Positions 28,119-47,323 of a stretch of DNA of 47,323 nucleotides are shown here, in pieces. The notes under the pieces were generated by a model, which was given only the letters and a program-made list of their open reading frames with translations, was not told the DNA's origin and did not search any database. Source of the DNA: an uncultured Bacillota bacterium (lineage in GTDB: Bacteria; Bacillota; Clostridia; Christensenellales; Borkfalkiaceae). The DNA lies in assembly GCA_949291725.1 (NCBI GenBank), contig CASEWU010000153.1, positions 1 to 47,323 on the forward strand, read 5' to 3'. Both the position numbers and the translations under genes were made by a program. How positions within the stretch are numbered: position 1 is the first letter of the stretch; the number at the start of each line of letters is the position of its first letter.

Positions 28119-28142
28119 ATATAACTTCCGCACTTATTTTTT

Positions 28143-28217: not shown

Positions 28218-28219
28218 AA

Positions 28220-28257: not shown

Positions 28258-28262
28258 GTCCA

Positions 28263-28841: not shown

Positions 28842-28870
28842 TTTGTAATTGCTTTTGCCCCGATTTTTCT

Positions 28871-28912
28871 ATGCTTGCGTTGTGAAATTGCAAACGCGCA
28901 GGACTTAAAATC
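28871..28912 (+). pseudogene. Degenerate 5' half of tRNA-Leu (copy A)
   Basis: 31/43 positions match the intact gene's 5' half by hand alignment; ends in GGACTTAAAATC at the anticodon loop. Confidence 0.75.
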
Positions 28913-29010
28913 AGACGGCATCCCCTGTTTTTGATCAAAACTAACTATAATTGAATAAATTTTTCATATGCCGCTGTGGCGAAACTGGCAGACGCAAGGG
29001 ACTTAAAATC
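28904..29010 (+). repeat. Left copy of the ~107-bp imperfect direct repeat (core-spacer-5' tRNA half-core)
   Basis: 87/107 identical to 47131-47236 by hand alignment. Confidence 0.9.
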
Positions 29011-29058
29011 CCTCGAAAGTAAAATTTCGTACCGGTTCGAGTCCGGTCAGCGGCACCA
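28970..29058 (+). tRNA. tRNA-Leu(TAA)
   Basis: 89 nt, GCCGCTG/CAGCGGC acceptor, loop CTTAAAA, long variable arm, CCA end. Confidence 0.97.
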
Positions 29059-29151
29059 AAAAACCACTATATATGGTAGATTTTAGATTTAATTTGCTGT
29101 ATATTGTGGTTTTTTCTTTTTGTCTTTTTTACGTCTTTCATCCCCTCTATA

Positions 29152-29256
29152 TTCCCCAAAAAACAAAATGTTAAATGTTTGATTTTAACACGCCAAATTC
29201 ACAAAAATTCGAGCTAAAATCCGTGAAACACCGATTTTGGGGAAAGTTTTGGGGAA
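29152..29256. repeat. Putative integrase arm-type sites, left end
   Basis: TTTTGGGGAA direct repeats at 29235-44 and 29247-56; inverted TTCCCCAAAA at 29152-61. Confidence 0.6.
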
Positions 29257-29290
29257 TAGATTGTATGTTTTTTACATTTTTATAGTCCGT

Positions 29291-30520
29291 TTACGGGACA
29301 TAATCGAACTTTTTGATCTCATCCAGTTGTAGTTGTTCGTTGAACTCCAAGTGAGTATAAATCAAGCTCGTTACGCTCGAATCGGGAGCGTGCCCCACCC
29401 ACAAAGAAACGATCTCTCTGCGGATAGCAACTTCCTGCGCGCGCGTGATAAAGGTATGACGCAGATCGTGCGTGCGATGTCCTTCAAAGTAATCTTTTAC
29501 ATGGCGCGCAATGGCATCCGAGCTTAGCTTAACGATTTTATCCGTTTGAATAAGCGGCAAAAATCGCTTCAAATTGGGCGATACGGGAATACGCCGTATT
29601 TTGTCTTTTAAGCCCTTTCTACCCTTTAACGATACAGCACGCACCCAGTTCCCTTCCATTGTCACAGACGCCAGTTCTCCGACGCGTAACCCCGTATACA
29701 GAAGGAATACGAGCGCCTGCGCGTAAATGCTGCCCGTCCGTTGCAGTTCATCAAGCAAGTGTCTCTCTTCCACGCGCGTGAGCGGCATTCCTACCCTCTT
29801 GTCATACTTGGGCAAAACGATCTTGTCCATCGGATTGCGCGGGATCACTCCGTCCGCCACCGCATACTTAAAGCAAGGCATCAACAGGTTATAGATTTTT
29901 TCCGCCGTTCGGAAATGCCCTTGCGATGTAAAACCGTTGATGTATTGCTGCAAGAAAAAGCTGTCTACGTCTGCAATCTCCATGTTGGCAAACACAGGGG
30001 AAATATTTGCGCGAAAATTGTATACATATTCAGAGTAAGTTCTTTCCTTTATGTACGGCATCTTTACAGTTTCCAGCCAGCGCAGGAAATAGTCGTTAAA
30101 CATCACCTTTTGATTTTCCGACTTGCGCCTGCGTTTTCCGCAGTTGTTGAGACTGTCAATAAATTTCTGCTTAGCGGTTTCAAGATCTTTCGACGAACCC
30201 GAATAGCGCACGCCGTCGATCATACAGCGCACCTCGTAAACGTTTCCTTTGCGCATAATGATATGCGCGATCACTTTGTTATATTTGAAAATATTTTTGA
30301 ATTTTTGCGGCATTTTGCTTATCTCCTTTTGGGTAAATTTAACTGCCGCTTTTTTGCCTTTGTTTTTCTCTTTTGCAGGTCTTTCTCCGATGAGCTTGGC
30401 GATGTTCTCAAGGGTAATCGTTTGATTTGCCGCCTTGATCACTTCGCAAAGCTGTTCATCGGAACAGTCTTTGTTGTTTCTGAGTTCATGTACAATGTTT
30501 AATAATTCTTCCTGTGTCAC
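29291..30520 (-). CDS. Tyrosine recombinase/integrase
   Basis: YTGLRVGE (R), HDLRH (HxxR), WVGH, IYTH (Y); N-terminal arm-binding/SAM-like region; GTG start after AAGGAG. Confidence 0.95.
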   Translation of the reverse strand: MTQEELLNIVHELRNNKDCSDEQLCEVIKAANQTITLENIAKLIGERPAKEKNKGKKAAVKFTQKEISKMPQKFKNIFKYNKVIAHIIMRKGNVYEVRCMIDGVRYSGSSKDLETAKQKFIDSLNNCGKRRRKSENQKVMFNDYFLRWLETVKMPYIKERTYSEYVYNFRANISPVFANMEIADVDSFFLQQYINGFTSQGHFRTAEKIYNLLMPCFKYAVADGVIPRNPMDKIVLPKYDKRVGMPLTRVEERHLLDELQRTGSIYAQALVFLLYTGLRVGELASVTMEGNWVRAVSLKGRKGLKDKIRRIPVSPNLKRFLPLIQTDKIVKLSSDAIARHVKDYFEGHRTHDLRHTFITRAQEVAIRREIVSLWVGHAPDSSVTSLIYTHLEFNEQLQLDEIKKFDYVP

Positions 30521-30738
30521 TTCTCCTTATGATTTATTTGTGCGGATCGCGGCAATGCCGCTCACAAATTGCTCCTGTCCGTATTTTCGCGCACGCGGCG
30601 ATTACAGCGACGGCTCGTTCACGCCATGATCGCTTCTCGCCGCATGACTGCGAATTCATTCAGTTGTGATTTCCGCATTTCTTATAGTCGTCCGTCTCCT
30701 GAACGAGAGACTTCCCACGTTCCCTAAGTTTTTGCGAT

Positions 30739-31044
30739 TCAGTTGTCTTTCTTCTGCTTTTCAAAGGCTTCCAACTCGCTCGAAAAGAAATCGTCATAGC
30801 CGTCCACAAGTTTGCCGAGCGCAAGATTGTGTTCCGCTGCATCGTCCTGCAAGGCTTTGTACCCCGCCTCGATCAACTGTACTTTCGTATAGCCGTACCG
30901 TTTCAAAAACGAATTGATCTCCTCGAAAAGCTCCCGCGGGATCATCGTCCCGAAGTTCCCGCTCTTTTGCTTTCTTTGCTCTTTGTTCCTCTCCTCATAC
31001 CGCCTGCGAGTTTCGCGCATAGGTGTGTTCTCTTTTCTCTCCAT
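30739..31044 (-). CDS. Putative ribbon-helix-helix / antitoxin-like DNA-binding protein (101 aa)
   Basis: RRRYEERNK...NFGTMIPRELFEEINSFLKRYGYTKVQLIEAG pattern; GGAGG RBS before MERKE. Confidence 0.6.
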   Translation of the reverse strand: MERKENTPMRETRRRYEERNKEQRKQKSGNFGTMIPRELFEEINSFLKRYGYTKVQLIEAGYKALQDDAAEHNLALGKLVDGYDDFFSSELEAFEKQKKDN

Positions 31045-31046
31045 CT

Positions 31047-31181
31047 TTATCCCTCCGTAACTGCGCAAACAATTAAACCAATAAAATTTGCCGCCAAATG
31101 TCCCACGAACAACACCCCTATCAGCGCAACCTTCAGCATCGTACCGACCACTTTTCCACTTGCATGCAATACTGTTTTCAT
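31047..31181 (-). CDS. Small hydrophobic membrane peptide (44 aa)
   Basis: AAGGAG RBS 8 nt upstream; MKTVLHASGKVVGTMLKVALIGVLFVGHLAANFIGLIVCAVTEG; stop 2 nt before the next start. Confidence 0.65.
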   Translation of the reverse strand: MKTVLHASGKVVGTMLKVALIGVLFVGHLAANFIGLIVCAVTEG

Positions 31182-31202
31182 TTGCATCTCTCCTTTTATA
31201 TT

Positions 31203-31243
31203 TATCGTATCGATACGATACCACACTTTTTGCATTTTGTCAA
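31203..31243 (-). promoter_or_regulatory. Promoter with a palindromic operator over the -10 box
   Basis: TTGACA-17-TATCGT; perfect 18-bp palindrome TATCGTATCGATACGATA at 31203-31220. Confidence 0.7.
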
Positions 31244-31390
31244 GCCTCTTCCCCAATTTTTTTGAAAAGGCGGGTTTCCCGCTTTTCTTTTTGCGGAAAG
31301 CAAAATCCGCCGAAAGTGGGAATTATCCCACTTTCCTTAACCTGCTTCCTTTTTTGGGCAAAATCGTACCACCTCCCCGTTCCTTTTTGC

Positions 31391-32131
31391 TTACCCTTTT
31401 TGACCGTATTTTTGTTCATACCGTTTTATAAGACGGTAAATATCGCACTCGTTTTGCAGATCCGTCTCTGCCTTTAACTTTGCGGTAACGTCTGCCCAAT
31501 CCAGTGCTGTTTTATACCGCTCTGCACTTCCGAACAAGTCCCCCTGCAAATCGGGATGAGAGCTTCTGAACTGTTCATACGTCAAGGGCAGTGCGGATAC
31601 TTCCTCCGCGGAACTTTCTTGTAAAGGGCAAGCATTCTTCGGTATACTATCCGTTTCCATGGTCGGCACCTTGCGCTTTTTGCTTATTCCTCCCTTACTT
31701 CCGCTGCTCTTTCGTTTTTTGGAAGTATCCATTTTCAGCCTGCAAAGATTGAAGTATCCCTGTATGCTCACATCCTTGAACTGCGGCTCAGTCCCTTGAA
31801 ACATATAGCCGCAAATTGCCTTGACAAACGCACCCAACTCATTTCCCTTCAATAACTTCATTGCATCAAAATACGTTTCATAGAACGTAAAATGCTCCGA
31901 ACGAAGGTTATACCTCTTGAGCGACCTGCCGTTGCTTTCTGCCTCCTTCACCTCTGCAAGCATGTCCGCAATGTTGTTCCAGTAAAAACGTTCTTTACCG
32001 TTCAACTTCTCTTCCGGCAGCTTGTCCTCGAACTCGTACTCACATATCCGCATTGCAAACTTGCCCGCATCCGTATCGTTCATTCCGTCTAAAATGTCCG
32101 AATACAACTTGTAAAATGTAAATTGCCTCAA
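31391..32131 (-). CDS. Protein with two tandem DUF6291-like (phage replication initiator N-terminal) domains
   Basis: Repeated FTFY..Y.D....GxFxxxICxYxF motif, then KRKSSGSKGG. Confidence 0.75.
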   Translation of the reverse strand: MRQFTFYKLYSDILDGMNDTDAGKFAMRICEYEFEDKLPEEKLNGKERFYWNNIADMLAEVKEAESNGRSLKRYNLRSEHFTFYETYFDAMKLLKGNELGAFVKAICGYMFQGTEPQFKDVSIQGYFNLCRLKMDTSKKRKSSGSKGGISKKRKVPTMETDSIPKNACPLQESSAEEVSALPLTYEQFRSSHPDLQGDLFGSAERYKTALDWADVTAKLKAETDLQNECDIYRLIKRYEQKYGQKG

Positions 32132-32307
32132 CCCATCTCCTCCTTGTGTTTTATTTTGCCGATGTTTTACGGCGCTTCGGCTTTGCCCTATCTTGCTACT
32201 TCATTTTCCACCTCCCGCATCTTTGTGATAAGGAAATTTATCAAACTACCCCTACATATAACATCGTGAAATTTCACCCTACTAACTTTGACGTTTTTTA
32301 AAAAAAT

Positions 32308-32333
32308 ATAGCCGAGCATCTCTGCTCGGCTAT
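32308..32333 (-). terminator. Terminator after the HTH protein
   Basis: ATAGCCGAGCA/TGCTCGGCTAT stem with an A-rich run on its left. Confidence 0.7.
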
Positions 32334-32345
32334 CTGAAGTCCTAT

Positions 32346-33365
32346 CTATTTACTTGTAAATTCCCCGTGAATAATCAAATTCTCCTCTCTGTCGTCGTCT
32401 TCCGCATCCCACACAAAATGAAGATAATTTTCTCCCCAATACGTAAACCGTGTATAAGTTTCCTCTGTTCTGAGATTAAAAATGGTTATCTTTGGATTAT
32501 CCTCGCTCCCTTCTAACACCCCTCCGAATGGAATCCCGAACAGTGTGAAGGCAACTTCACGCTCAGCAAAATCAATTTTGAATTTCTTTGTTCCGTCGGA
32601 AGACAATTCTCCGGGGCGGCAGTCATACAGCTCTCCTGTCTTATAGTTAATCCTTATGTACTCAACCGGTGTCTCTTTCCCGTCCTTTTTCGATATGAAA
32701 TGACGATACCTGATCGCAAGGTACTTTGGATTTCTTATACACGCAGACTCATCTTTCTTAAAATGTTTAAGATATCTCCCTCGCACTTTACGACGATAAC
32801 TTTTTGAGATGTACAAATCCTGCAAGTCAAAACATCCCTTGTTTTTGTAGCTGTACTCCTCCCAATCCCAGTCACGAAAACCTGCCCTGTTTTTGACATC
32901 GTAAAGCATTCCTATCGTCAACCCCGAACCAAACTTTTCGACAGGCGGGCCGATATACCGATAAGAATTATGCCGCTGCTTGCCCTGTTTGTCGAACGTT
33001 GGTTGTACATCGATCAGACCTTCATCCTTCAAACTCTTCATGAGCAGCTGTATCGTGCGTTTGGACACGGCAAGTTTATTGGCGAGATTATCTAAACTTA
33101 TCGGCTTTCCGTTCCGACGGATAATATAGTTTACAACCATCTCTCGCCGTTCTTCAGGTGTTGCCTTTCGCATCAGAAACTGCGGCGGAGCATGATTATA
33201 ATTATTGTTGTAATACACGGGATTTTCGATCTCCACAAAGCCGAATTTGTTCTTGTGGACTGTCATATCCCCAGGCTCACCGAGAGTGTGCTTATTGTGC
33301 CTTTTCCTCTTCTTTACCTTTTCTTCCCCCGTTCCGCAGCTGTTTTTTTCCATTTCTCTCTCCAA
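32346..33365 (-). CDS. Winged-HTH protein, possible replication initiator
   Basis: ISLDNLANKLAVSKRTIQLLMKSLKDEGLI...GKQRHNSY resembles HTH_36-type initiators. Confidence 0.65.
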   Translation of the reverse strand: MEREMEKNSCGTGEEKVKKRKRHNKHTLGEPGDMTVHKNKFGFVEIENPVYYNNNYNHAPPQFLMRKATPEERREMVVNYIIRRNGKPISLDNLANKLAVSKRTIQLLMKSLKDEGLIDVQPTFDKQGKQRHNSYRYIGPPVEKFGSGLTIGMLYDVKNRAGFRDWDWEEYSYKNKGCFDLQDLYISKSYRRKVRGRYLKHFKKDESACIRNPKYLAIRYRHFISKKDGKETPVEYIRINYKTGELYDCRPGELSSDGTKKFKIDFAEREVAFTLFGIPFGGVLEGSEDNPKITIFNLRTEETYTRFTYWGENYLHFVWDAEDDDREENLIIHGEFTSK

Positions 33366-33716
33366 ATGCGAACATTTGTTTGTATTATAGCAGGCGACAG
33401 TGCTTATGTCAAGGCGAGCAGGCTAACAAACCAATCAAAATTTAAATAATTTTCTATTATCCTTTATCTTACAATAATCTCTTTAAAAAATCATTATACT
33501 TATTTTCACTTTTAAACCTTTCTATTTCTGCTTGTCGGAAAGCGATCTCTTATTGCTACCGTTTTTGATATTACAAAACAAGATTTTAAGCATATAGATG
33601 ATTGGCATTTTCGAGAAAATTTTACTTTTTTCTCCTCAAAAATATTCCGTTGATTTTCCACCACACAATAATTGCAACTGCTTCGTTTCAACAACTTTAA
33701 CTTTTCAATGCTTCAT

Positions 33717-34130
33717 CTAATTTTTAATCTCGTATTCTTTATAAACTTTAAAGGCTGATTGTAAAGCTATAAAATGACGAGGTGTAAACTTAATATTTGT
33801 TGATTTACCCTTTAATTTTATTTGAATTGTAATATATTCGTTTTTTTTCGGCTCAACGATAGTATGCTCAATTTGATCCTCAAAAGTATCAAGATTTTTA
33901 GCACAATATCTATATTCCGCAGCACAATTTGGACAAAGGCACAACGTATTCCATCCTGTATCAATATTATTTAAGAGTTGCTTATCTAAGTGCGCTGTAC
34001 TAACAATGTTGATAGCCTCAAAATAAACATCCCCCTTGTACTTTCTTATCGGTTCCCGTCCACATATCTGACAAACACCTTTATACTCCTCTTTAATGAA
34101 TTGCTTTTCTATTGGCGATGTCTTTGTTAT
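33717..34130 (-). pseudogene. 3' remnant of an HNH-like nuclease gene
   Basis: Frame extends past the listed ORF: EKQFIKEEYKGVCQICG...YFEA...WNTLCLCPNC; no start codon; overlaps the DUF4238 gene end out of frame. Confidence 0.7.
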
Positions 34131-35079
34131 ACTGTCTAAAAACCTCCTTAGGAAATTTTCTAATTCTCACACTTGCAGAACAAGTTTTCTTTTTTTCAAA
34201 ATAGAATTCCTTAACATGTACACACGATCTAACCAAATAATATGTGCATAACAGCTCTTTTTCCATATTTTCACCTAAAATTACAGATAAATAAGGATCT
34301 GGCATACCATTTCCATATTTTCCCCCAAACCTTGATAATGTGTTATAATATGTCTTCTCGTCTAAATAATATTTACTTTTAACTAAAAACAGCGCTGTCT
34401 TAGGTGAAATCGGTACATAGAAATACAAAAAGTCCGAATCCATTGTATTTTCTATGATACAAAATCGATTAGAAATACATAAAATTGGTTGTTCCGCGCG
34501 CGCAATCACTATGTGCATTCCCATAGTATATTTACTATATATGTAACTTGGTTCGATATAATTAGATTCAATCCATGATTGAATATCATCTTTCATCGAA
34601 TCAATTTTTCTAAAATCATCCATAATCTGTTGTGTAATTTCAACAGCCTGAGTTTGGGTATCTACCCTATGTACCCCCCATAAATACTGATTGCTTTGAT
34701 AAATCCCAGATTCATCTTCTTTTATTACTTCGCAAGTAAATTCGTGTCTACTCCCACATAATACACAATACAATTTTAATAACTCTAACTCTTTTCCTGA
34801 TAAAACCACTTCTAAATCAGCTTCATCAATCCGCTTTATGATCTCACAAATTTTGCTTTCAAAAACCTGAATGCAATCTTCCAATATGCTATTCTTTTCC
34901 CCTAATGAATAGTAGAACGGTAAAGAAAACACATTGCGTTCTATATCCACGATCTGATTTTTCTGCTTATCATACAGTCGTCCTTTAAAATTAATCCATT
35001 TTTTTATATGGAAAAATGGATATAAATGATTGTTCTTTTTCACATTGTTTTTCTTATTCGTTTTTGATTTCATTCGCAT
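34093..35079 (-). CDS. DUF4238-like protein, possibly C-terminally truncated
   Basis: N-terminal NHLYPFFHIKKW, YYS...LEDCIQVFESK, ISNR and YVPISPKTAL motifs; very AT-rich. Confidence 0.7.
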   Translation of the reverse strand: MRMKSKTNKKNNVKKNNHLYPFFHIKKWINFKGRLYDKQKNQIVDIERNVFSLPFYYSLGEKNSILEDCIQVFESKICEIIKRIDEADLEVVLSGKELELLKLYCVLCGSRHEFTCEVIKEDESGIYQSNQYLWGVHRVDTQTQAVEITQQIMDDFRKIDSMKDDIQSWIESNYIEPSYIYSKYTMGMHIVIARAEQPILCISNRFCIIENTMDSDFLYFYVPISPKTALFLVKSKYYLDEKTYYNTLSRFGGKYGNGMPDPYLSVILGENMEKELLCTYYLVRSCVHVKEFYFEKKKTCSASVRIRKFPKEVFRQYNKDIANRKAIH

Positions 35080-35100
35080 TTTTCTTTAATAATGAAATAA

Positions 35101-37380: not shown

Positions 37381-37381
37381 T

Positions 37382-37705
37382 TTAATCCTCGATCACTTTT
37401 GTAAGTAAAATTTTCTTTTCAAAGCCGCCGCGCGTTTCTCTTTTCTTTATCCGCGACTGCTCCAATTCCTCTATCGAATACCCGCGCGCCGAAGCAGCCG
37501 CATAGAGTACTTCCAATAAGTCGGCAAGTTCCTCCAAATTCTTATCCCTATGATATTCGGCGAGCTCCTCGTCGAGCTTTTTATCCAGCATTTCCAAATA
37601 TTCCATGTCGGACAAAATTTTCGTCTCGTATTGCTTCCCCGCTTCCTCTATAATTTGCGGAATCTTGTCCCGTACGAGTTTATTGTAAAGTATTTCTTTC
37701 ATCAT
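37382..37705 (-). CDS. MazG-like / PRA-PH-family nucleoside triphosphate pyrophosphohydrolase
   Basis: YNKLVRDKIP, KLDEELAEY, EELADLLEV, KRETRGGF. Confidence 0.9.
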   Translation of the reverse strand: MMKEILYNKLVRDKIPQIIEEAGKQYETKILSDMEYLEMLDKKLDEELAEYHRDKNLEELADLLEVLYAAASARGYSIEELEQSRIKKRETRGGFEKKILLTKVIED

Positions 37706-37727
37706 TCTCCTCCTTGATCCGCCGCTA

Positions 37728-38918
37728 TTATTCACCGCCCAACGTTTCTGCTTCTTGCTCTAACTTGCAGTTCTCCTTTAACATAAAGGCAATCACTTCC
37801 TGGAAGATTGGACTTCTAATTTTCTGTAGACGCGAAACATCGTTTTTCGTAAGCTCTTTCCAATACGGCTTATATTTGCGAAGTGTATCCACATTCATCA
37901 TCAGCGGCGCAAACGGTATACCCGTTGCCGTCCGCAAATGCTCGAAGATGTAAAATCCACCTGCATCGATGTCTCCATAGTGAAAATATTTTTTAGCTGG
38001 CTCTGCCCCATAAACCTTCATCAGAAATTCTCTGCGCAAGTGGTTACAAAACCCACCCAAATACACGGCACATACGTTCGGTTCAGAAAAGGAAAAGAAC
38101 GACGTTAGATTTTCGATCGTAACAATTTTTTCGTCCTGTATCTTTACCGAAACAATTTTTTTTACATCAGTGGTCGATATTCCAACACCGCCGTCCAACC
38201 CTGCGGCATCCAAGCACTTTCCGTCTTTCCAAAAAATCGATACATTCCCCTTGATGTGAATATAGGAAGGAGTTTTCAGCAAACCAAGCTCATCGAAAAC
38301 ACTTTCCTTTTCCGAAAAATCTCCGTACTTATACAGCAAGGAACTGATTTTTCCCTGCAACAGTTCAAACTTTTTAGAATCGCCGAATTGCTTTACGGAG
38401 AAATTCCGATAATACATTTCCTGCGGAAGTTTTTTCAAGGCAATGCAACACGCAAGAATGGATTTTAACTCTTCATAATCCCCATCAAAAAACTCTACCG
38501 CTTTATTTTGCTCAAGATTTTCCAGCTGTTTTTTACAGTACTTTTCAACCGTTCCATCCCCGCCGCCCATAAATGTTGTCAATAATTCTGTAAGTTTCTG
38601 GCGTCGATCGGATTTCTTTTCTCTGCCTAAAAACAAATATATTTGGGACAGGACATCCTCATTTTGCGGAAGCGTAACGTCCGAATATGTATGATTTGAA
38701 GAACGCTTCGCAACGATCCAGCCTTTTGAAATAAGTTCTTCGATCGCCTCGTTTACCTTTTCACGTAATTCAAACGCTTCATTGTCAAAATATTTCGGAA
38801 ATACCTTATCCGTGGTAAGCTTTAAGGAGACACGGATCTGATTGTTTCCGTCCGACACTTTACTGTGTTCGTACTTATCAAGCAAGCTTATAAGTATTTC
38901 TTTTATATACTGTTTCAT
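37728..38918 (-). CDS. jetD: Wadjet JetD (DUF3322/DUF2220 Toprim nuclease)
   Basis: IVTIENLTSF, YLGGF, HYGDIDAGGFYI, KLEQE; follows the SMC gene with ATGA overlap. Confidence 0.92.
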   Translation of the reverse strand: MKQYIKEILISLLDKYEHSKVSDGNNQIRVSLKLTTDKVFPKYFDNEAFELREKVNEAIEELISKGWIVAKRSSNHTYSDVTLPQNEDVLSQIYLFLGREKKSDRRQKLTELLTTFMGGGDGTVEKYCKKQLENLEQNKAVEFFDGDYEELKSILACCIALKKLPQEMYYRNFSVKQFGDSKKFELLQGKISSLLYKYGDFSEKESVFDELGLLKTPSYIHIKGNVSIFWKDGKCLDAAGLDGGVGISTTDVKKIVSVKIQDEKIVTIENLTSFFSFSEPNVCAVYLGGFCNHLRREFLMKVYGAEPAKKYFHYGDIDAGGFYIFEHLRTATGIPFAPLMMNVDTLRKYKPYWKELTKNDVSRLQKIRSPIFQEVIAFMLKENCKLEQEAETLGGE

Positions 38919-41900
38919 ACTCGTTCGTTATAATAAGGCACGATCGTGCTTTTTTCCCCTTGACGAATTGTCATAAACACGCTTTTTACGCTTTCCGAAA
39001 TTACCGGGACTTTTTGGGGCGGCGTTGCCAAAATCATTTGAAACCCTAACTTTGTGAAAAAATGCAACATGGAATCGATACGGAAGTCATCCATTTTGTC
39101 AAACGCTTCGTCCAACATGATAAGTTTTATCGTATCGTCTTTATAGATCTGATTAAAAGAAGCCGCTATGATGACATAATACGGTACCTGCGTTTCTCCG
39201 CCGCTGCTTTCCGCTCCGACAGAAGAAAAACGAATGATCTTTTCCCCTTCTTTGATCTCAATATCATAATCCAGATAATTGCGGTAATCAGAATATTCAT
39301 CCAAAACCTGGGCTCCGTTTGTATCCTGCGCCCGCAATTTTCCGAACAGATCCTCCATCTCTTCCCTATAACTTGCCTCAAAAGAATCGGTAAACAAGGT
39401 ATATCCGCCCAGATTGCCGTTATCCATGATCATGTCGTACAGACGTTTTTTATTTTTATCCGCGGAATACAAGAAACGATAGAAAACTCCGTTGTAATCG
39501 ATGCCTTTCAGTACCTTATTCAGTTCGTCGAACGTCCTGCGAGCCATTTCTATATTTTCTTTCATCTTAGAAAGGAAAGCCGAACGGAATTCCTCTTCGC
39601 ATTCTTTTTTCCTCTGATCCAGTTTTCCTTCATACTCGGCAAGTTTACTGCGCACCAGTATATCGAGATATTCTTCATATTTTTGCATATCTTCGGGATC
39701 GCAGCCTCGAGAATAATCGCTTTCATTCATTCTGTTAAAATCAGATTGCTGTGCAACAATTTGTTGGCCAAACTTATCTTGTTGTGATTTAAGCCAGGCC
39801 AACCTCGGCGAAAAATTTTCCCTGACCTTCTCCATGCCGATTCTGGTTTTTTCTTGTTCAAGCTTTTGCCCCGCTTCTTCCAGCAACCGGCTTTGTTTTT
39901 CGCGAAATTCCTCTATTTTCTCCAAGCAATCAGAGTCTTTTTGGATATCAGAATCATAAATCTTTTTAAGAGTTTTGATCTGCTCCTCATATCCCCCCTG
40001 CTCTTTTTTCATTTCCCCAATCCGATCCCTGATTTTTTTCAACCTTTTGTCGTATTTTTTGATTTGCTCGTCAAAAGCCAAAAACGACGTGTCCTTTTCC
40101 GCTTTTTTAATATCCTTTTCCAAGGCAGAAATACGTTCACTCAGCTCTTTGATCTCCTGTTCCGCATTGTGATGCTCACGCAGAACACGAATGTCCAAGC
40201 TTATAAACCGCTCTTTGAACTCTTCCGTCGTCTGAAGTTGTTGTTTGATTTCCTGAAAGTCGAAATTGAGTTTTTCCGCTTCTTTTTCCTTTTGCTGTAA
40301 TTGAACCCTGGCCGCATTTTTCCCGATAAACGGTACGCGGTATGACTCAAAAGGTATTCTTCTAACAGCATATCCCTGATACAGCATACAATCGGCTGTT
40401 ATGGCAATTTTGTGCGCGATCAGATCTTCCTCAGTTTGTGCCGTTTTGACGCGCTGTAAAAGGTATTTTGCATAACGGCGCGCATACATATTTTCCGACT
40501 GAACATAGTAAGCGAGAGTATCCGTAAAATCTTCTTCCGCGTCACTCATAAATTTTGTTGTATCGACTACAAAAACGCCGCTGACTTCTCTGCCTAACTC
40601 TCTGTAAATGCGCACCGCCGTTTTAAAATACTGCGGTGAAACGAGCAAAGCAAATTTCTGGGTATTCAAATATCCTTCGATCGCATCGCGCCATGTCTCG
40701 TCCGTGATCTCCAACGCCTCACATAAGAGAGTGACAGAACTATCAATCCCTTCCTCTCGAAATGTCTTTTCGATGGCGGCACGCACTTTTAAAACCGAAT
40801 CACTGTAATTCAGACGATTTTTTTTCAAATTTGCAATTTCCGTGTTTATTTTTTCGCGCGCTTTTTGAACGGCCTCCTTCCGAGAACAAAGAGTATAATA
40901 TTCTCTTTCGTTTTTTTCTTTAAACTCTGCAAAAAGCTGTTCCGCTTGCGTCAGACAAAGAATTCTATCCTCCTGCGTCTGTGCATCTTCCAAAGATTCG
41001 GCGATATTGAAAGAAAGTTTTAAATCATAAAACAATCTCTGCAACGTTTTGCGGCATTCTTCAAATTTCTCATGATTTGCCTTCGCCGTTTTTAAACGGA
41101 ATTCTTTCTCCTTCTTTTCTTCACTGCTATTTTTTATCAGTTGATATGTATCGCTTTTTTCTCTTGCAATATAGACGTCTCTCCGATAGGCGTCTACTTC
41201 CTCCTCTTCCTTTGATAATTGCTCAATTTTATCTTCCTGCTCATCCAAATACCGCCGTTTAGCACGAATCTCTACTTGACTACTCTTAATTTTCTCTTTC
41301 AAAGTTTCATGCTCGGCAAGCGTCAACATGATATCGATCTTTTCTGTTTCCGTTTTACAATCGGATATTTTGCGATAGGTTTCGCAAATTTCCTGCAACT
41401 TTAAGATTTTCTCTTTTGTTTGTACAATCAGCATCTCCATTTCGCTGACGGAATCGATATCTTGCCGCAAGCGCTGCACGTCCACTTTATTCTCCGGCAA
41501 TAAAAATCGGGTAATAAATTCCTTGATATCCTTCATGGGTTTAAAAGCAAGAGATTTTGGGATCAACTCCTGAATTTTATAATCGAGGTTCCCCAATCTC
41601 TGTAAAATGCGGGCTTTTGCCTCTTCATCCGTTTTTATACATGAAATTTTCTTGCCGCGCGCGGTAAAATCGGCTGATTCCGAAACCGGCTTATTGTCTT
41701 TAATAAATACAATATCTTCCAATCTGCAATTTTCGATAAACCAACCGCGCCGAATTTGTCCCTCTTCGCTGGGAGAATCCAATTTAACGCCAACAACAAA
41801 ATTTTGACGCTTTGACTCTTCGTAAAATTCCAACGCAACAAAAGAAGTTACTTTTCCGTTTCGTTTATAAGTTTTTCCTTCACCGCCCGTCTTGCAGCGC

Positions 41901-42115
41901 ACATAACCTTTTAAATCCCGTCGACTGTTTTCATTTGCAGCCTTATTGAAGGACTTTCCGCCCGCAGTCAAGACATATTGCAACGCGTCTAAAACAGTAG
42001 ATTTTCCCGATCCGTTGTCTCCGAAAAAAAGAGCGGAATCCTGTACTTCTATTTCCTCATTTTCAAAATAGTGCCAGTTGATCAGTTTAATTTTCTTCAG
42101 GATCTTCCTGTTCAT
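38915..42115 (-). CDS. jetC: Wadjet JetC (SMC/MukB-like ATPase)
   Basis: LINWH, GDNGSGKST, long coiled coils, DYRNYLDY, SSGGETQVPYY, LDEAFDKMD. Confidence 0.93.
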   Translation of the reverse strand: MNRKILKKIKLINWHYFENEEIEVQDSALFFGDNGSGKSTVLDALQYVLTAGGKSFNKAANENSRRDLKGYVRCKTGGEGKTYKRNGKVTSFVALEFYEESKRQNFVVGVKLDSPSEEGQIRRGWFIENCRLEDIVFIKDNKPVSESADFTARGKKISCIKTDEEAKARILQRLGNLDYKIQELIPKSLAFKPMKDIKEFITRFLLPENKVDVQRLRQDIDSVSEMEMLIVQTKEKILKLQEICETYRKISDCKTETEKIDIMLTLAEHETLKEKIKSSQVEIRAKRRYLDEQEDKIEQLSKEEEEVDAYRRDVYIAREKSDTYQLIKNSSEEKKEKEFRLKTAKANHEKFEECRKTLQRLFYDLKLSFNIAESLEDAQTQEDRILCLTQAEQLFAEFKEKNEREYYTLCSRKEAVQKAREKINTEIANLKKNRLNYSDSVLKVRAAIEKTFREEGIDSSVTLLCEALEITDETWRDAIEGYLNTQKFALLVSPQYFKTAVRIYRELGREVSGVFVVDTTKFMSDAEEDFTDTLAYYVQSENMYARRYAKYLLQRVKTAQTEEDLIAHKIAITADCMLYQGYAVRRIPFESYRVPFIGKNAARVQLQQKEKEAEKLNFDFQEIKQQLQTTEEFKERFISLDIRVLREHHNAEQEIKELSERISALEKDIKKAEKDTSFLAFDEQIKKYDKRLKKIRDRIGEMKKEQGGYEEQIKTLKKIYDSDIQKDSDCLEKIEEFREKQSRLLEEAGQKLEQEKTRIGMEKVRENFSPRLAWLKSQQDKFGQQIVAQQSDFNRMNESDYSRGCDPEDMQKYEEYLDILVRSKLAEYEGKLDQRKKECEEEFRSAFLSKMKENIEMARRTFDELNKVLKGIDYNGVFYRFLYSADKNKKRLYDMIMDNGNLGGYTLFTDSFEASYREEMEDLFGKLRAQDTNGAQVLDEYSDYRNYLDYDIEIKEGEKIIRFSSVGAESSGGETQVPYYVIIAASFNQIYKDDTIKLIMLDEAFDKMDDFRIDSMLHFFTKLGFQMILATPPQKVPVISESVKSVFMTIRQGEKSTIVPYYNERV

Positions 42116-42701
42116 CGGCAGCGCCTCCTCTTTTCAAATCCCCCAACATACTCTCTGTTTCCGCATATAACTGATCGATCGAACTGTTCGGAAGCGCAAA
42201 CAAAATTGTCGGATAAATTTCAATTTGCGTATCGTCAGGCTTATCCTGCGGATATACTTTCGCCAATTTATATCTTCGAAACAACCGCAACACTTCGTCC
42301 CTTCTGACTTTATCGATCCTCGGTTTTTGCGATATTTTCAGCAAAGCATACTTATTTGCAAATTCTTCCCACGTAACGCGTATTTCTGTATTTTCATTCA
42401 AAGATTTTTTCTTTTCGATATATAGCAACCGCAACAGCAAAATCATTACACTGTCATCTTTTTTTAAACGAATACGTCCGTTTCCGTCCGGATTTACAAG
42501 GTGGATAACATTGTTATGTTCATAAATATTTACAGTGTAACCGATCGTACTAAAAAAATCCGAAAACTTTTCTCGGTTCTGAATAACAAACAAATAATCG
42601 TCCGGTTCCCGTTTTTTTATCAAAAAGCACTCGTTCAATAACTTATTTGCCACGTCTTTAAATCTCTGATTGTTACGGTCTGATTCAAACAGCTTCATCA
42701 T
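42087..42701 (-). CDS. jetB: Wadjet JetB (DUF4194, kite)
   Basis: NKLLNECFL, LLLRLLYIEK, IYPTILF; position between jetA and jetC. Confidence 0.88.
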   Translation of the reverse strand: MMKLFESDRNNQRFKDVANKLLNECFLIKKREPDDYLFVIQNREKFSDFFSTIGYTVNIYEHNNVIHLVNPDGNGRIRLKKDDSVMILLLRLLYIEKKKSLNENTEIRVTWEEFANKYALLKISQKPRIDKVRRDEVLRLFRRYKLAKVYPQDKPDDTQIEIYPTILFALPNSSIDQLYAETESMLGDLKRGGAADEQEDPEEN

Positions 42702-44099
42702 TTACCTCACTATACGGAAATCTGCAAAGCGAAAACCGTTTACCCGTATCATTTTTCCGGTAGGCTCCACACGATAGCCGGTTCCTTTCTTCCCTGCGAA
42801 AAAACGTACAAAAATCAATTTGATAAAATCCTCGTTTGTACTCAGGGGAAACGCAGATCCCAGCATCATTCCTTTATCACTCAATACTGTGTCAACATAC
42901 TCGCAAATACTTTTTTGCGTTACCAACGCTTTCAGCTTTTGATCCATTTGCTCTCGTTGCCTTGCAAGTTCCGAATCATCAAAACATTCCTCACTGAATT
43001 GTTCTCCATTGTTTTCACCCTTACTCTCTCTCGGTGTATAAAATGATTCTCCGTCCAAAAATCCCGATTGAAAAATATCAAAAATGTGTAAAAAAGTTTC
43101 CTCTTCTTCCTGCATTTCTTCTTTTCCTGTATTCCACTTATGAACGTACATCTCTAAGATCTTATTTAACTTTCCTTCAATATTTTTATCCGTCGACAGT
43201 AAAAACTTCGCACGTTCGATGGCACTGTTGATATATCGAACATTTTTATTTTCTATTTCTTCAATGATCGCGTCGTAGTTCTTTAATTCGCCTTTCAGAT
43301 AATGAACCAGCCCCTTAATTTCCGACTCTGCTTTTACAGGATCTTCCTCATTCTGAACTACCATATACCCCCTAATGGTACGCGCGAGTATATCCTCATC
43401 TTCTGTAAAGCGGTTTAATCTGTCCAAAATTTGCGGACGGTAACGAGAAATATTGTCACCAGTCTTTAATCTGTGATATGCTTTTGAACCGATCTCTTTA
43501 TGATAAGTAAAATAGTCCTCAATAATTTCTGCCGCATCTTTGTTTTCAGTAGCCTTATCAATATATTTTTTGATGGAAGTATTCAGCTTTTTCAGCTCTT
43601 TAATGAGCCTTTCTATATTTTCTTGTAACCCGATCAAAACATTTTCGTAAGGTTTTTGGCGATACGCATCTTCGTTGACCGCAATACTATAAATGGTTTG
43701 GATAATACTTTGATATTCCGCCTCTTCCTCTGAAACGATTTTACGAAATGACTCCAAAATTGTTATCGCATAGTCATTGAAATAAATTCGGCTTATATAA
43801 TTTTTCCCGATTTCTTCATCGATCCAGCCAAATCCCTTTAATTTTCTTATAAACTCCAAAGCGACTGACCTTCCATCCGCAAAGCTTTCCTCACCTTCCT
43901 CTTCAAACACAAAATTTTTTTGATTTCGTTCTTCGAAATAATCGGAAAGACGTTCAACAACAATACTTTTCTCTTCACTGTTGCTCATTTGATATTTGCA
44001 ACACTCATAGATCATATTCAAACAATCAAGATAAACTTCTTTATATGAACTTGTCAAGGGCTTAAAGAAAGACGCCCCCACTATATTAAAAAAACTCAT
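42702..44099 (-). CDS. jetA: Wadjet JetA (DUF5716-like kleisin)
   Basis: FFKPLTS, LKGFGWI, YHRLKTGDNISRYR, ESFYTPR; first of a four-gene SMC cassette. Confidence 0.88.
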   Translation of the reverse strand: MSFFNIVGASFFKPLTSSYKEVYLDCLNMIYECCKYQMSNSEEKSIVVERLSDYFEERNQKNFVFEEEGEESFADGRSVALEFIRKLKGFGWIDEEIGKNYISRIYFNDYAITILESFRKIVSEEEAEYQSIIQTIYSIAVNEDAYRQKPYENVLIGLQENIERLIKELKKLNTSIKKYIDKATENKDAAEIIEDYFTYHKEIGSKAYHRLKTGDNISRYRPQILDRLNRFTEDEDILARTIRGYMVVQNEEDPVKAESEIKGLVHYLKGELKNYDAIIEEIENKNVRYINSAIERAKFLLSTDKNIEGKLNKILEMYVHKWNTGKEEMQEEEETFLHIFDIFQSGFLDGESFYTPRESKGENNGEQFSEECFDDSELARQREQMDQKLKALVTQKSICEYVDTVLSDKGMMLGSAFPLSTNEDFIKLIFVRFFAGKKGTGYRVEPTGKMIRVNGFRFADFRIVR

Positions 44100-44145
44100 A
44101 GCATATATCCTGCCTTAAATTCTATTTTCCCTTTTGTATTTTAGC

Positions 44146-44179
44146 ATATAATACAGGCATACGTATGCCTGTATTATAT
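44146..44179. repeat. Perfect 34-bp palindrome between the XRE gene and jetA
   Basis: ATATAATACAGGCATAC|GTATGCCTGTATTATAT, checked base by base. Confidence 0.95.
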
Positions 44180-44362
44180 TTTTTTCAAATTTTTTTCAAC
44201 ACAAAATTGTTCAAAACGTTGCAGGGCTTCATAGGTCGGATTATTATGGCTGTTTTCCCAACGATTGATCGTCGCAAAGGATACACCCAATTCTTTTGCC
44301 ATTTCTTCCTGACTCAGATTTAATGCTAAGCGTACTTGCTTTACTCTTTCCCCAAAGGTCAT
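44174..44362 (-). CDS. XRE-family regulator (controller-like) heading the jet operon
   Basis: VKQVRLALNLSQEEMAKELGVSFATINRWEN. Confidence 0.92.
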   Translation of the reverse strand: MTFGERVKQVRLALNLSQEEMAKELGVSFATINRWENSHNNPTYEALQRFEQFCVEKNLKKI

Positions 44363-44395
44363 ATTGGCATCCTCTAAATATAATTCCTGATTTAA

Positions 44396-44424
44396 ATTAT
44401 AACATGCCTGTTATATGTTTTCAA
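44396..44424 (-). promoter_or_regulatory. SigA promoter with an operator overlapping spacer and -10
   Basis: TTGAAA-17-TATAAT with TGn; inverted repeat TATAACA-n4-TGTTATA at 44398-44415. Confidence 0.8.
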
Positions 44425-44547
44425 TAGTATTACAAAAAAACAGACTAATAAAATAAAAAACGACCCCGCAGAAAAGTATTCTACGGGGGCGGCTTTACAA
44501 GCAAATCATGCCATAGATGTCTTGCTGTCTGTTTTTACAATTTCCTC

Positions 44548-45642
44548 TTAACCCTTAATCTGTGCTTTGATTTCCTCCATGATCTTGCGGCAGATTTGCA
44601 GGTTCAGCTTAAAATCTTCGGCGAGTGCAAGGATGTCCGCATCCGAAGGGTTCCCAACACCGTTGACGGTCATTTCGTGCTCGAATTTTCCGACCGTTTT
44701 CGTCAAATCATACGCGGGCGAAAGGAGATAGCCCCCTATCTCCTCATGATACAAGAACGCAAAATTTTTGCTGTGGTCGTCCTTGTTGCCGTAATAAACA
44801 TTAAAACACATACGGCGAAAGACCTCGTACATCTCCCTCAAATCGGCGCAAATATTCTCCGTCACGTTGAACAGGTGCCCGTAGTCGAGATTGGGCTGAC
44901 GGTGCGTCGTTTCCAACAGCGCAGCGAGCGATAGAACATGCAGGCGCTTTCCTGCCTTCCGGTCAAACCGCTTTGCGCCGAAATACCCCGAACACATCCG
45001 CGACGGGAACAGGCGAAATTCGCTGACATCGATTCCGCACTCCCGCGCCGCAACGTTTGCCCTGTATTCCAGCTCCCCGACGTCTTGCGGATCGATGCGG
45101 CAGGGAAATTTCACGATCCACTCCTCCCCGTCGATGTGAAGATGTGCCTTGGGCCGCGCTCCTCCGCTCGAACCGCCTAAACGATAGACGGCGTCCAGAT
45201 CGTCCGCATTTTCATCGTTGAGGATCTTATCCACCTCGCGCGCAAGCGTATCGAAATCGGGCGCGTCTGCACTTTCGCCCGTAAATTGCGACGGCTCGTA
45301 ATTTAATCCGCCCAGCCCGTTTTCACCGATCAACGAAAGCTTGGTAAGCGGCGAAAGCCTGTCGTAATTGATTCCCTGCTTTGCCAGATACCGCTTGACG
45401 AGCAATTCGCCCCAACCGTCGGGAAGACTGTCCCAAAACACACCGTACAACCCGTCGAACTGTTTTTTTTTGCTCACAAAGATCTCTTTGCGCAGCGGCA
45501 AAGACAGCGGCGAAATCGAAAACCCGCCTTTCAGCCACCCGTCGTCGTACTGAAAGCCAATGACGCCCTCCTCAATTTGCGCGAGATACCCGACGGTCCG
45601 CCCGTTGTAGCGAACCGTAACTTTTTTGACTTCCGCGATCAT
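44548..45642 (-). CDS. hipA: HipA-family kinase toxin
   Basis: N-terminal couple domain (FQYD..W...ISP.SLPL, DSLPDGWG), GGSSGGARPK, IVKFP, RFDR, GNKDDHSKN, LSPAYD. Confidence 0.95.
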   Translation of the reverse strand: MIAEVKKVTVRYNGRTVGYLAQIEEGVIGFQYDDGWLKGGFSISPLSLPLRKEIFVSKKKQFDGLYGVFWDSLPDGWGELLVKRYLAKQGINYDRLSPLTKLSLIGENGLGGLNYEPSQFTGESADAPDFDTLAREVDKILNDENADDLDAVYRLGGSSGGARPKAHLHIDGEEWIVKFPCRIDPQDVGELEYRANVAARECGIDVSEFRLFPSRMCSGYFGAKRFDRKAGKRLHVLSLAALLETTHRQPNLDYGHLFNVTENICADLREMYEVFRRMCFNVYYGNKDDHSKNFAFLYHEEIGGYLLSPAYDLTKTVGKFEHEMTVNGVGNPSDADILALAEDFKLNLQICRKIMEEIKAQIKG

Positions 45643-45929
45643 CCCTGAAACTCCTTCAAATCAACGATCATCTTTGTCCGAAAGAGCATGTCAAAATCTT
45701 GCAGGCAATCAAGCGCCTGCGCGATGCGCAAAAGCGACGACAGGGAAATTTCCCCTTCCGTTTCAAACCGCCGCACGGACGCATAGCTCACCCCCGAACG
45801 GACGGCGAGCTGTTTTTGCGAGAGTTCCCGCTCTTTCCTGCGTGCCCGCACGCGCTCCACAAGCGCGCCAAGCACCGATTGCCTTGTCGGAACATCGACA
45901 AATTCATGAAGATCGTATTTTTGTTTCAT
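45639..45929 (-). CDS. hipB: HipB-like XRE antitoxin
   Basis: RARRKERELSQKQLAVRSGVSYASVRRFETEGEISL; ATGA overlap with hipA. Confidence 0.88.
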   Translation of the reverse strand: MKQKYDLHEFVDVPTRQSVLGALVERVRARRKERELSQKQLAVRSGVSYASVRRFETEGEISLSSLLRIAQALDCLQDFDMLFRTKMIVDLKEFQG

Positions 45930-45967
45930 AGTGCTAATATTTTAGCACTTTTTTTATATTTTGTCTA
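45930..45967 (-). promoter_or_regulatory. hipBA promoter with autoregulatory operator
   Basis: TAGACA-17-TAAAAT (TGn); inverted repeat AGTGCTAA-n4-TTAGCACT at 45930-45949 directly before the ATG. Confidence 0.7.
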
Positions 45968-46086
45968 TAAATTGCGCATATATTAGCGATATTTTTTAAA
46001 ATACTGATATTAAAACATTACGCCGCATCAAAAGCTCAAAGTTTATTGTAACTGAAAATCATAGAGCCTTATTATCTTTTAACACC

Positions 46087-46122
46087 GGAACGGCGGACAA
46101 AATTGTCCGCCGTTCCTTTTTT
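46087..46122 (+). terminator. Terminator hairpin
   Basis: GGAACGGCGGACAA/TTGTCCGCCGTTCC plus T6 on plus. Confidence 0.75.
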
Positions 46123-46159
46123 GATTGCTGTAAATTAACCTGTTGAATTCCAAAACAGT

Positions 46160-46315
46160 TCAGCACGCTTCCACTTTTACCGTGAACTCTGCTCCGTCCA
46201 CAAATTTTACATGCAGCCCATCTTCTTCCCTTGCGACTTTTGCAATAAACTCGTCCTTCATCATTGTTTCCAAGTATTGAATCAGTTCTTCCGCCTTCAT
46301 TTTTCTTTCTGACAT
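46160..46315 (-). CDS. Small acidic hypothetical protein (51 aa)
   Basis: AAGGAGG RBS 8 nt before MSERK; divergent from the double-HTH gene. Confidence 0.7.
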   Translation of the reverse strand: MSERKMKAEELIQYLETMMKDEFIAKVAREEDGLHVKFVDGAEFTVKVEAC

Positions 46316-46491
46316 TTCGCCAGCCTCCTTTTTATTCTTAACGTTGCGCACCGTTAATTCCTATTTAGTATACTTGATTTTCGTGGGAATATCAAGCATT
46401 GCAAGCCATCAAAATGACATAATATTATTGATTCATTTAAAACGTTTGACGAATTTTGTCGAAAACTTTTTGCTGAGGGAGGAACAGCTCT

Positions 46492-46929
46492 ATGGATCAT
46501 TTTAATTACTTCGGAGATTGCCTGAAAGAACTTCTTGTCGACAGCGGCATGTCCATCAAAGAACTTTCCGAAAAAACCAAAATACGCTTATCAAGACTTT
46601 ACGACTTTTTGAATAAAGAACACATTCCTTCTTTGGAAAACGCTATCAAAATTGCCGATGTCTTTCGTTGCCCTTTAGACTATCTGTTTGGTTTCGTCGC
46701 TGACTTCACTCCGCAAACGTTTACCGTAACAGGCAGCGTTTCAGAAAACGTGAAGGCAGCCATGGATAACTCCAAGATGACCAGATATCAAATCCACAAA
46801 AAGACTAACATAGACGAGTCACAACTTCTGCGTTGGTACGCAGGAAAACAAACTCCATCCCTTGTCAGTCTCATTACTTTAGCAACTGCACTCGATCTCT
46901 CAATTGATACCCTTTTGGGGAGAAAATAG
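46492..46929 (+). CDS. Tandem double XRE-HTH regulator
   Basis: Two HTH_3 units, ending PSLENAIKIADVF.CPLDYLFG and PSLVSLITLATALDLSIDTLLG; GGAGG RBS. Confidence 0.9.
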   Translation: MDHFNYFGDCLKELLVDSGMSIKELSEKTKIRLSRLYDFLNKEHIPSLENAIKIADVFRCPLDYLFGFVADFTPQTFTVTGSVSENVKAAMDNSKMTRYQIHKKTNIDESQLLRWYAGKQTPSLVSLITLATALDLSIDTLLGRK

Positions 46930-47037
46930 GGAAAAAATGGGGAGAAAACAAAGAAAAACGGCCCCGTAGGAGAAAATCCCACGGGGCTGATTTTGTTCTT
47001 TCGCACCGACTCTTGATCTCGGGGAAAATTTGGGGAA
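46913..47037. repeat. Putative integrase arm-type sites, right end
   Basis: TTTTGGGGAG at 46913, TGGGGAG at ~46938, TCGGGGAA at 47019, TTTGGGGAA at 47029. Confidence 0.6.
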
Positions 47038-47130
47038 TTGAAAATTTGAATTGCTGAAAAACAAAGGTTTTTCTATAAAAACTAGGCAAAAAAGCGGCTT
47101 TTTTGATGCTTGTTTTAGGGCCTTGACTGC

Positions 47131-47236
47131 CTTAAAATCAGGCGGGATCGTGTGTTTTTAATTAAAAATAACTATCGTTGAATAATTTTTTATTTGCCGC
47201 TGTGGAGAAATTGCCAAACGCAAAAGAATTAAAATC
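47131..47236 (+). repeat. Right copy of the direct repeat, including degenerate 5' half of tRNA-Leu (copy B, 47196-47236)
   Basis: 87/107 identity to 28904-29010; GCCGCTGTGGAGAAATTGCCAAACGCAAAAGAATTAAAATC, after which similarity to the tRNA stops. Confidence 0.9.
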
Positions 47237-47323
47237 ATAAATAAGAACTATCGTGTGGTTTTCTTTATACAAAAAAAGCCTCATCAGTAACGATAAGGCT
47301 TTCCGTTTATAATAAAAATTAGA

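Follow-up and report, generated by a model that had tools for sequence, protein, structure and literature searches.

The window analysed here is a 47,323-nt stretch of DNA from an uncultured Bacillota bacterium of the family Borkfalkiaceae, and makes up the entire contig CASEWU010000153.1 (C153) of assembly GCA_949291725.1 (G000; 2.3 Mb in 279 contigs, 92% complete). Downstream of a host tRNA cluster it contains an 18,227-bp element, an island spanning 28904–47139, with an intact tRNA-Leu(UAA) gene close to its left end and a decayed 5′ half of a tRNA-Leu gene at either side (Table 1). The subject of this report is the origin of that gene and what excision of the island would do to it.

Four copies of the anticodon-loop core (C/A)TTAAAATC, at 28904, 29002, 47131 and 47228, follow one another with periods of 98 and 97 bp, and the two repeat units (28904–29010 and 47131–47236) are identical at 87 of 107 positions, with an alignment score of 85.5 against a maximum of 48 over 1000 shuffles. 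Because CTTAAAATC occurs only 36 times on both strands across the assembly, this clustering of cores is not due to chance. A preliminary description of this DNA, made from its letters, had reported both the spacing and the identity, as well as a sole intact tRNA-Leu(UAA) and a far end lacking a 3′ half, and all four observations stand. A single tRNA-Leu(UAA), at 28970–29058, is returned by ARAGORN for the window, and the 29 tRNA genes of the whole assembly include no other; BLAST and pattern searches of the assembly return neither a second copy nor a stray 3′ half; and no 3′ half is present at the far end of the window or in the flanks of two similar metagenome contigs, L045 and L048.

The left crossover point is probably core c1 (28904–28912), which ends the orphan 5′ half. 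On the right, the last 76 bp of the island arm up to the core are 99% identical in relative G053 (contig C13, written G053:C13), where a decayed 3′ half follows, and the right end of the G047 element has a related arm and then an intact, conventional displaced 3′ half. Because the boundary in both is the core corresponding to R1, the spacer-like sequence S′ and the right-hand half belong to the flank and not to the island; once S′ is so counted, the island ends share the 9-bp core alone.

Spacer and tRNA gene at the left end

Of 48 congeners, 10 have a match at E ≤ 0.01 to the spacer S between core c1 and the intact gene (that in G054 being a 22-nt chance match), and the pattern of S is present in seven metagenome contigs. 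Most S-bearing loci share one order, namely host tRNA cluster, 5′ half, core, S, whole tRNA-Leu and element left end, in which the upstream 5′ half is species-specific and often decayed and the whole tRNA-Leu is one of two isotypes. The 14 left-type copies of S from other genomes and contigs score 49–56 of 57 against this S (most of them 52–56), S′ scores 42.5 of 57, and the flanks upstream of the S copies are mostly unrelated. A contig of run X4 (runs X1–X4 are contigs from one study, in which rare forms are lost) carries the host flank of the window with 8 differences over 498 bp. Behind this flank come a variant S, 86 different nucleotides where the window has its tRNA-Leu, and then the element left end of the window. 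The tRNA gene is thus exchanged along with the island within what is apparently one species.

Compared across relatives, the attachment site of the element reads right arm, core, spacer, whole tRNA, left arm, integrase. This supports a family site that holds the core, a short spacer and a whole tRNA-Leu(UAA), with the tRNA of the present island as an element-borne replacement. The preliminary description had offered two scenarios, an array of half-tRNA landing pads completed by a 3′-half element, or a full replacement tRNA brought by the element with decay of the older copy. The relatives support the second, and the first becomes unnecessary because the spacer and the whole tRNA travel with the island.

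The 43 distinct spacers of the family are 39–62 nt long and 73% AT, and 35 of them have a TGAATA-like motif shortly 5′ of the tRNA, for which an accessory-protein site, part of a promoter and a processing signal are candidate roles. A sigma-70 promoter in S was considered and rejected: scanning S for the consensus revealed no site that ends at TATAAT, and no excess relative to shuffled sequence.

Matching halves and nested insertions in relatives

A pattern of core, gap and 5′ half was found at 108 loci in a collection of species genomes; many of these are unrelated (chance promoter-like matches, tandem genes, other phyla), and those used have a related integrase or a readable half. The upstream core lies outside an intact tRNA at 103 of the 108 loci. 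Among the 59 with at least 1.5 kb downstream, 29 have a match to the integrase of this island, mostly in uncultured Clostridia, Christensenellaceae, Borkfalkiaceae, Coproplasma and Scatosoma. Both an orphan 5′ half and a whole gene are readable at 46 loci, and their acceptor stems differ at 33 of these. The whole genes pair fully in all 46, and the orphan pairs at most 5 of 7 positions with the adjacent 3′ half in 25; an element supplying a 3′ half could therefore not have repaired those orphans.

If an element brings a whole gene, the 3′ half at its far end should match the orphan 5′ half, and this comparison is the decisive test. We sought 3′ halves in 39 pattern-locus genomes and 48 congeners, comparing junctions where there was a second match. 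Both ends were found in 17 genomes, and 15 of their 20 far-end 3′ halves pair at 7 of 7 positions with an orphan 5′ half. Ten far-end 3′ halves mismatch the resident whole gene, and eight of these match an orphan 5′ half.

In G094 (contig C1, 41493–184477), a single tRNA-Leu site holds about 143 kb of nested or tandem elements and two whole tRNA-Leu(UAA) genes. The orphan halves GCTCGTG, GCTGGTG and GCCGCTG are followed by a whole gene and then by five junctions 30–43 kb apart, with an integrase match after each; the last three junctions are the 3′ halves of the orphans in reverse order. We read the site as a nest of five elements in reverse order. Its second junction consists of arm, core, spacer and whole tRNA, the arrangement produced by entry of an element at the core that precedes the spacer of a resident one, and is the intact counterpart of the right end of our window.

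Whole-gene replacement and nesting are, on these comparisons, very probable. The integrase would split the resident tRNA gene at the anticodon loop and replace it whole rather than repair it, so that the 5′ part of the resident gene remains upstream of the insertion and its 3′ half comes to lie at the far end, as the matching halves of relatives show. The new gene holds the same core and would be the next target, each round adding a spacer and a 5′ half (98 bp with this spacer), as in the observed stacks. We accordingly favour, as the probable account of the 18,227-bp island, that it carries a spacer and a complete tRNA-Leu(UAA) behind its left core, that this gene replaces the resident gene it split, and that precise excision would leave no such gene.

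A single clade for the integrases of all whole-tRNA elements is not supported. In a tree of 36 rows, from which matches shorter than 250 aa or with stops were excluded, they fall into two lineages about 30–35% identical, with a long-branched inovirus integrase beside the one described here. The nearest named integrase is that of inovirus PQ006185.1 (38.5%), which is without a whole tRNA. Free circles or phage forms were not found: the S pattern had no match in viral_contigs, none of 44 viral loci had a related integrase, and none was found by protein.

Seven congeners (G017, G044, G064, G059, G042, G056 and G057; loci L116, L038, L117, L321, L318, L336 and L337, respectively) have an insertion of about 220 nt in the anticodon loop of tRNA-Leu(UAA) that breaks the attachment core. 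The one insertion scored, L116:1673–1857 of G017, matches a group I intron at E = 1.9e-8 and 38.6 bits, below the Rfam cut-off of 50, and a literature search returned no group I intron of this kind in Firmicutes. In G042 the insertion lies in an element-borne tRNA gene. The sequence after the core in G008 and G018 was considered as a separate 5′-replacing element and rejected, as G042 shows a spacer of about 230 nt before an intron-bearing whole tRNA. At L331 (G042:C71:1–17460), matching tRNA halves enclose 16 kb of glycoside-hydrolase genes without a match to this integrase; we read the stretch as a cargo block from which the recombinase was lost or was always missing. A second whole tRNA-Leu(UAA) gene is found in another tRNA cluster, possibly on a prophage, at L334 (G059:C39), where an orphan half lies upstream of the gene, and likewise at L305 (G075:C1).

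Probable history of the right end and predicted consequences of excision

The right-hand half is preceded by a decayed element-type spacer and is for this reason assigned to an older element. It is best read as that element's tRNA and not as a native host gene, so that the replacement scenario of the preliminary description keeps its full replacement tRNA and loses its decayed host copy. The half together with its downstream sequence gives no tRNA-like fold. The earlier description had further taken letters shared by the left and right decayed halves (GAAATTG, CAAACGC) as a sign of kinship. Their acceptor stems differ at 4 of 7 positions; the left half scores better against another isotype (22.5) than against the resident one (19.5), and the right half better against the resident isotype (26) than against that other one (22). 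A common origin through shared substitutions is thus rejected, and, because the halves differ in isotype, the shared letters would be convergent or common variants.

The same decayed right flank is found in a contig of run X2, which extends past the window end, and in L045 and L048, which are 95–96% identical to the last 219 bp of the window and have a different right arm before the flank; islands have therefore been exchanged since the decay. Neither the 2.9 kb (L045) nor the 2.6 kb (L048) beyond the flank contains a tRNA-Leu or a 3′ half. Sequence at 47255, which had been likened to the hairpin arm downstream of the tRNA, is instead part of an IS200/IS605-family end: 47247–47280 matches a genome-wide repeat at 32 of 34 positions and the arm at 15 of 34, and the copy of the repeat on C150 lies just upstream of an IS200-like transposase (Y1_Tnp). 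The end occurs at at least six places in G000 (C120, C123, C198 and C203, all at contig ends, C150:9852 and C268:200), most copies being followed by a terminator-like hairpin.

These features suggest an order of events. An older element would have placed S′ and its tRNA behind the half now at 28873, and a later one, the present island or a forerunner, would have entered at c1 with S and its own tRNA, giving two copies. The downstream copy would then have decayed, with 7 changes over 41 nt of its 5′ half, and would have lost its 3′ half, together with the old element, to a deletion whose far side is probably marked by the IS200 end.

Excision between cores would remove 18,129 or 18,227 bp, sizes that the preliminary description had computed correctly. 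In the four empty chromosomes computed for all core pairs, ARAGORN finds no tRNA-Leu even at a relaxed threshold, and excisions computed with the L045 and L048 flanks likewise leave none; the proposal that no core-to-core excision leaves the tRNA thus holds in silico. Three of the four computed circles keep the gene. In bacterial decoding, UUA codons require tRNA-Leu(UAA), and TTA makes up 5.4% of Leu codons in long open reading frames (ORFs; 2,885). The ORFs with TTA include those that we take to be rpoA, adk and secY; besides the adk- and secY-like ones, TTA is absent from 13 other ORFs checked between 3933 and 18068. Because the older halves are decayed, precise excision would leave no working tRNA-Leu(UAA), and clean excision here would likely leave the cell without one. 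With the gene essential and single, cells that excise the island would die; the island could be exchanged for a relative or eroded from within, and would not be cleanly cured. Comparable end states are seen among the relatives, with mismatched halves at G053:C6 and decayed 3′ halves at both G053:C13 and G024:C80.

We consider lock-in at this locus rather likely, a judgement tied to an incomplete assembly, and several observations weigh against it or against whole-gene replacement. Most relatives retain displaced halves that fit together (15 of 20), so that the gene is restorable there, and lock-in would be an end state of some lineages rather than a property of the family. It would block precise excision alone: the tRNA gene stands at the island edge, so an internal deletion that leaves the first ~150 bp of the island in place keeps it, and G024 and G043, which have spacer and tRNA without an adjoining related integrase or element end, suggest escape by deletion. 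Addiction by tRNA capture, as the preliminary description called the arrangement, is for these reasons too strong as a general mechanism. A second tRNA-Leu(UAA) in G000 is possible, as its tRNA set has gaps, Leu-CAA and Leu-GAG included, and G006, G059, G075 and G094 each carry a second whole copy. The kinship of L045 and L048 is drawn from 219 bp, and their downstream DNA is absent from this assembly. Among far-end 3′ halves, two of the ten informative ones match nothing (G053, G074), and three others match the whole gene alone (G076, G082, G092), which also fits circles carrying a 3′ half only; the 17 genomes compared were selected for having both ends found. Contigs of runs X1–X4, weak evidence from a single study, contain no end-joining contigs, empty sites or circle joints, and with no circle or empty site found, element activity and the crossover point are predictions.

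Some relatives (G015, G068, G082) have junctions of arm, core, 3′ half and left end, as expected if a conventional 3′-half element had entered c2 of a chromosomal array of spacer and 5′ half and completed the half, the downstream gene then decaying. Excision at c2 would yield such circles, and the 107-bp direct repeat is compatible with either crossover point. Yet S is far nearer to copies in other species than to the S′ of its own genome, the whole tRNA and S change jointly on the same host flank in run X4, orphan halves are usually unable to pair with the adjacent 3′ half, and the scars themselves require a carrier of whole genes; we therefore regard entry of a 3′-half element as improbable. 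We give next to no credence to a further reading, in which the 98-bp units are remnants of 5′-fragment islands, bringing their own promoter and 5′ half and displacing the host 5′ half, and the 18-kb island is separate and ordinary. That uncommon class, which accounts for 159 of 3,919 islands in the text of the Islander study (PMC4383910), is recognised by an orphan 5′ half with an intact gene downstream of it. Here, however, neither the integrase nor the element body is situated between half and gene, both being downstream of the intact gene, and the match of far-end 3′ halves to orphan 5′ halves largely refutes it in G094, G042, G070 and G101.

Whole-gene replacement could also be right and lock-in absent, if unassembled DNA holds a second tRNA-Leu(UAA) or a usable 3′ half. 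The incomplete tRNA set, the end of the contig 87 bp past the last core and the second whole copies in four relatives all leave room for this. It is nevertheless quite improbable given two near-identical flanks without a 3′ half over 2.6–2.9 kb and a single UAA-type match in each of the most complete congeners, G041 and G052 (96%). Moreover, both orphan halves are decayed and the island gene is perfect, which would be unexpected if the island gene were spare.

Beyond this locus, whole-gene replacement may amount to a ratchet, in which islands of this clostridial family supply the essential tRNA-Leu(UAA), each gene becomes the next landing site and, once older halves have decayed or no longer match, a lineage can swap islands without ever emptying the site. 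We advance this tentatively, with slightly less than even confidence. Each island would bring its own isotype, and the stack of orphan 5′ halves would be an ordered record of invasions. The site would act as a permanent, exchangeable defence slot, with turnover of a core translation gene among strains of the same species, and the group I introns that some congeners have at this anticodon loop could be a counter-move that closes it.

Known systems, cargo and neighbouring genes

The closest parallel we found is tRNA-dependent lysogeny in actinobacteriophages (Fionnbharth/K4, Cluster L, Gaia; Guerrero-Bustamante and Hatfull 2024, PMC10865867), in which, according to the article text, a tyrosine integrase uses an 8–10-bp core in a tRNA gene, the host gene is left unrepaired and the element encodes a tRNA with the same anticodon. 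The island has the corresponding features: a tyrosine integrase whose short core (~10 bp) falls within a host tRNA gene, a resident tRNA rebuilt at neither attL nor attR (the orphan half at 28873–28912) and an element-encoded tRNA with the same anticodon (28970–29058). It differs in that its gene lies 39–62 bp behind the core, inside the attachment region and in the place and orientation of the host gene, whereas the Fionnbharth tRNA gene is described in that text as overlapping a separate protein gene on the opposite strand. As no virion genes were found in the island, it does not belong to tRNA-dependent lysogeny in the strict sense. The authors speculate in the article text that a second plasmid may use a plasmid tRNA as attB; we found no description of natural nested half stacks or of host-half loss in that text.

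Islander islands (Hudson et al. 2015, PMC4383910), as their article text presents them, resemble this family in their tyrosine integrase with crossover at the anticodon loop, in the 3′ fragment displaced to the far end and in their tandem arrays. They carry a fragment that restores the target, and here there is a whole gene, with 25 of 46 orphans in relatives unable to pair. The displaced 3′ fragment is absent from the far end here and present in relatives such as G047. The Islander configuration filter, as described in that text, rejects a 5′ fragment downstream of the gene and would therefore miss this island. Prophages covered in the text of PMC12429752 do rebuild their targets.

Toxin–antitoxin addiction modules and grounded prophages resemble the island in that element loss is selected against, and the island itself has a hipBA-type module; the hold proposed here would differ in coming from lost host gene halves, free of toxin and acting on precise excision only. 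In the literature, most subscription papers and all supplements aside, we found neither lock-in nor the combination of stacked halves and a core-adjacent replacement gene described. The base trick of an element-encoded replacement tRNA is already published, and the variant suggested here would consist of the core-adjacent gene, the stacks and lock-in.

With this variant, tRNA-dependent integration would be extended beyond actinophages, to islands in uncultured clostridia that are not phages, and its long-term outcome could be seen in natural genomes, where nested insertions can be read in order and a housekeeping tRNA is replaced by element-borne isotypes. Lineages in which precise excision no longer restores the gene would represent a toxin-free route to fixing defence islands. 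In practical terms, this layout is rejected by island-finding programs built on the assumption of a restoring fragment.

Table 1. Coordinates and basis of assignment for features of the island and its flanks
Feature	Position	Strand	Basis and remarks
Host tRNA cluster Val(UAC)-Gly(GCC)-Cys(GCA)	27933–28217	+	ARAGORN; conserved landmark upstream of the Leu(UAA) site; order kept in congeners
Host GNAT acetyltransferase ORF, between tRNA-Cys and the Leu site	28206–28841	+	Pfam PF13302; same place in several congeners; real start perhaps further downstream
Decayed orphan 5′ half of an earlier tRNA-Leu(UAA) of another isotype	28873–28912	+	Sequence, alignments; species-specific, variably decayed in relatives
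Spacer S, 57 bp, AT-rich, probably element-borne	28913–28969	+	TATAAT at 28946–28951; TGAATA-like motif of family spacers
Intact tRNA-Leu(UAA), probable element-borne replacement; holds core c2 (29002–29010)	28970–29058	+	ARAGORN; cloverleaf fold
Hairpin 3′ of tRNA, part of element left end	29058–29115	+	Inverted repeat I4; common to related elements; probably terminator-like
Two TTGGGGAA direct repeats, putative left integrase arm sites	29237–29256	+	Sequence; function by analogy with lambda-type integrases
Tyrosine integrase, 409 aa, uninterrupted, points at tRNA	29291–30520	-	Pfam PF14659/PF22022/PF00589, PHROG 1
Backbone ORFs: unknown, DUF6291, helix-turn-helix (HTH)/DnaD-like replication-type protein	30739–33365	-	Pfam, PHROG scans
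Cargo: DUF4238 protein, ResIII/helicase (type IV restriction-like)	34093–37380	-	Pfam, PADLOC
Cargo: Wadjet type I jetABCD	37728–44099	-	Pfam, PADLOC
Cargo: HipA and HTH antitoxin-like gene (hipBA-type module)	44548–45929	-	Pfam; 94% identical in G047 element
Two-HTH regulator	46492–46929	+	Pfam, PHROG scans
Element right arm with TGGGGAGA/TTGGGGAA repeats	46916–47130	+	Sequence
Core R1, right boundary of the 18,227-bp element	47131–47139	+	Comparison with G053:C13 and G047
Decayed spacer S′, probably of an older same-family element, now chromosomal flank	47140–47195	+	42.5 of 57 against S; 55 of 56 against L045 and L048
Decayed 5′ half, probably of the older element's tRNA-Leu; ends in core R2	47196–47236	+	7 changes in 41 nt; 3′ half absent
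IS200/IS605-family end remnant	47247–47280	+	32/34 to genome-wide repeat on C120

The catalytic motifs of the integrase were identified by eye in its translation, and the TTGGGGAA-type repeats near both ends of the island are likely to be arm sites. Over 4.5 kb, the backbone and left end are 92% identical to the G047 element, which has other defence-like cargo instead (type III restriction-modification-like genes, TIR/SEFIR and helicases). The Wadjet type I system here is complete, with jetA, jetB, jetC and jetD adjacent (PADLOC JetA1–D1). Virion genes were found neither among 15 ORFs of 28206–46929 (Pfam) nor among 7 ORFs (PHROGs), and a Pfam scan of the island ORFs returned no relaxase. Mob_Pre is present in related elements of G053 and G079; this island has the DnaD-like and DUF6291 ORFs. 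Elsewhere in the window, 2944–18068 is a ribosomal protein operon region, and on another contig of the assembly (C106:9047–9123) lies a tRNA-Pro to which ARAGORN assigns the anticodon AGG, which is unusual in bacteria.

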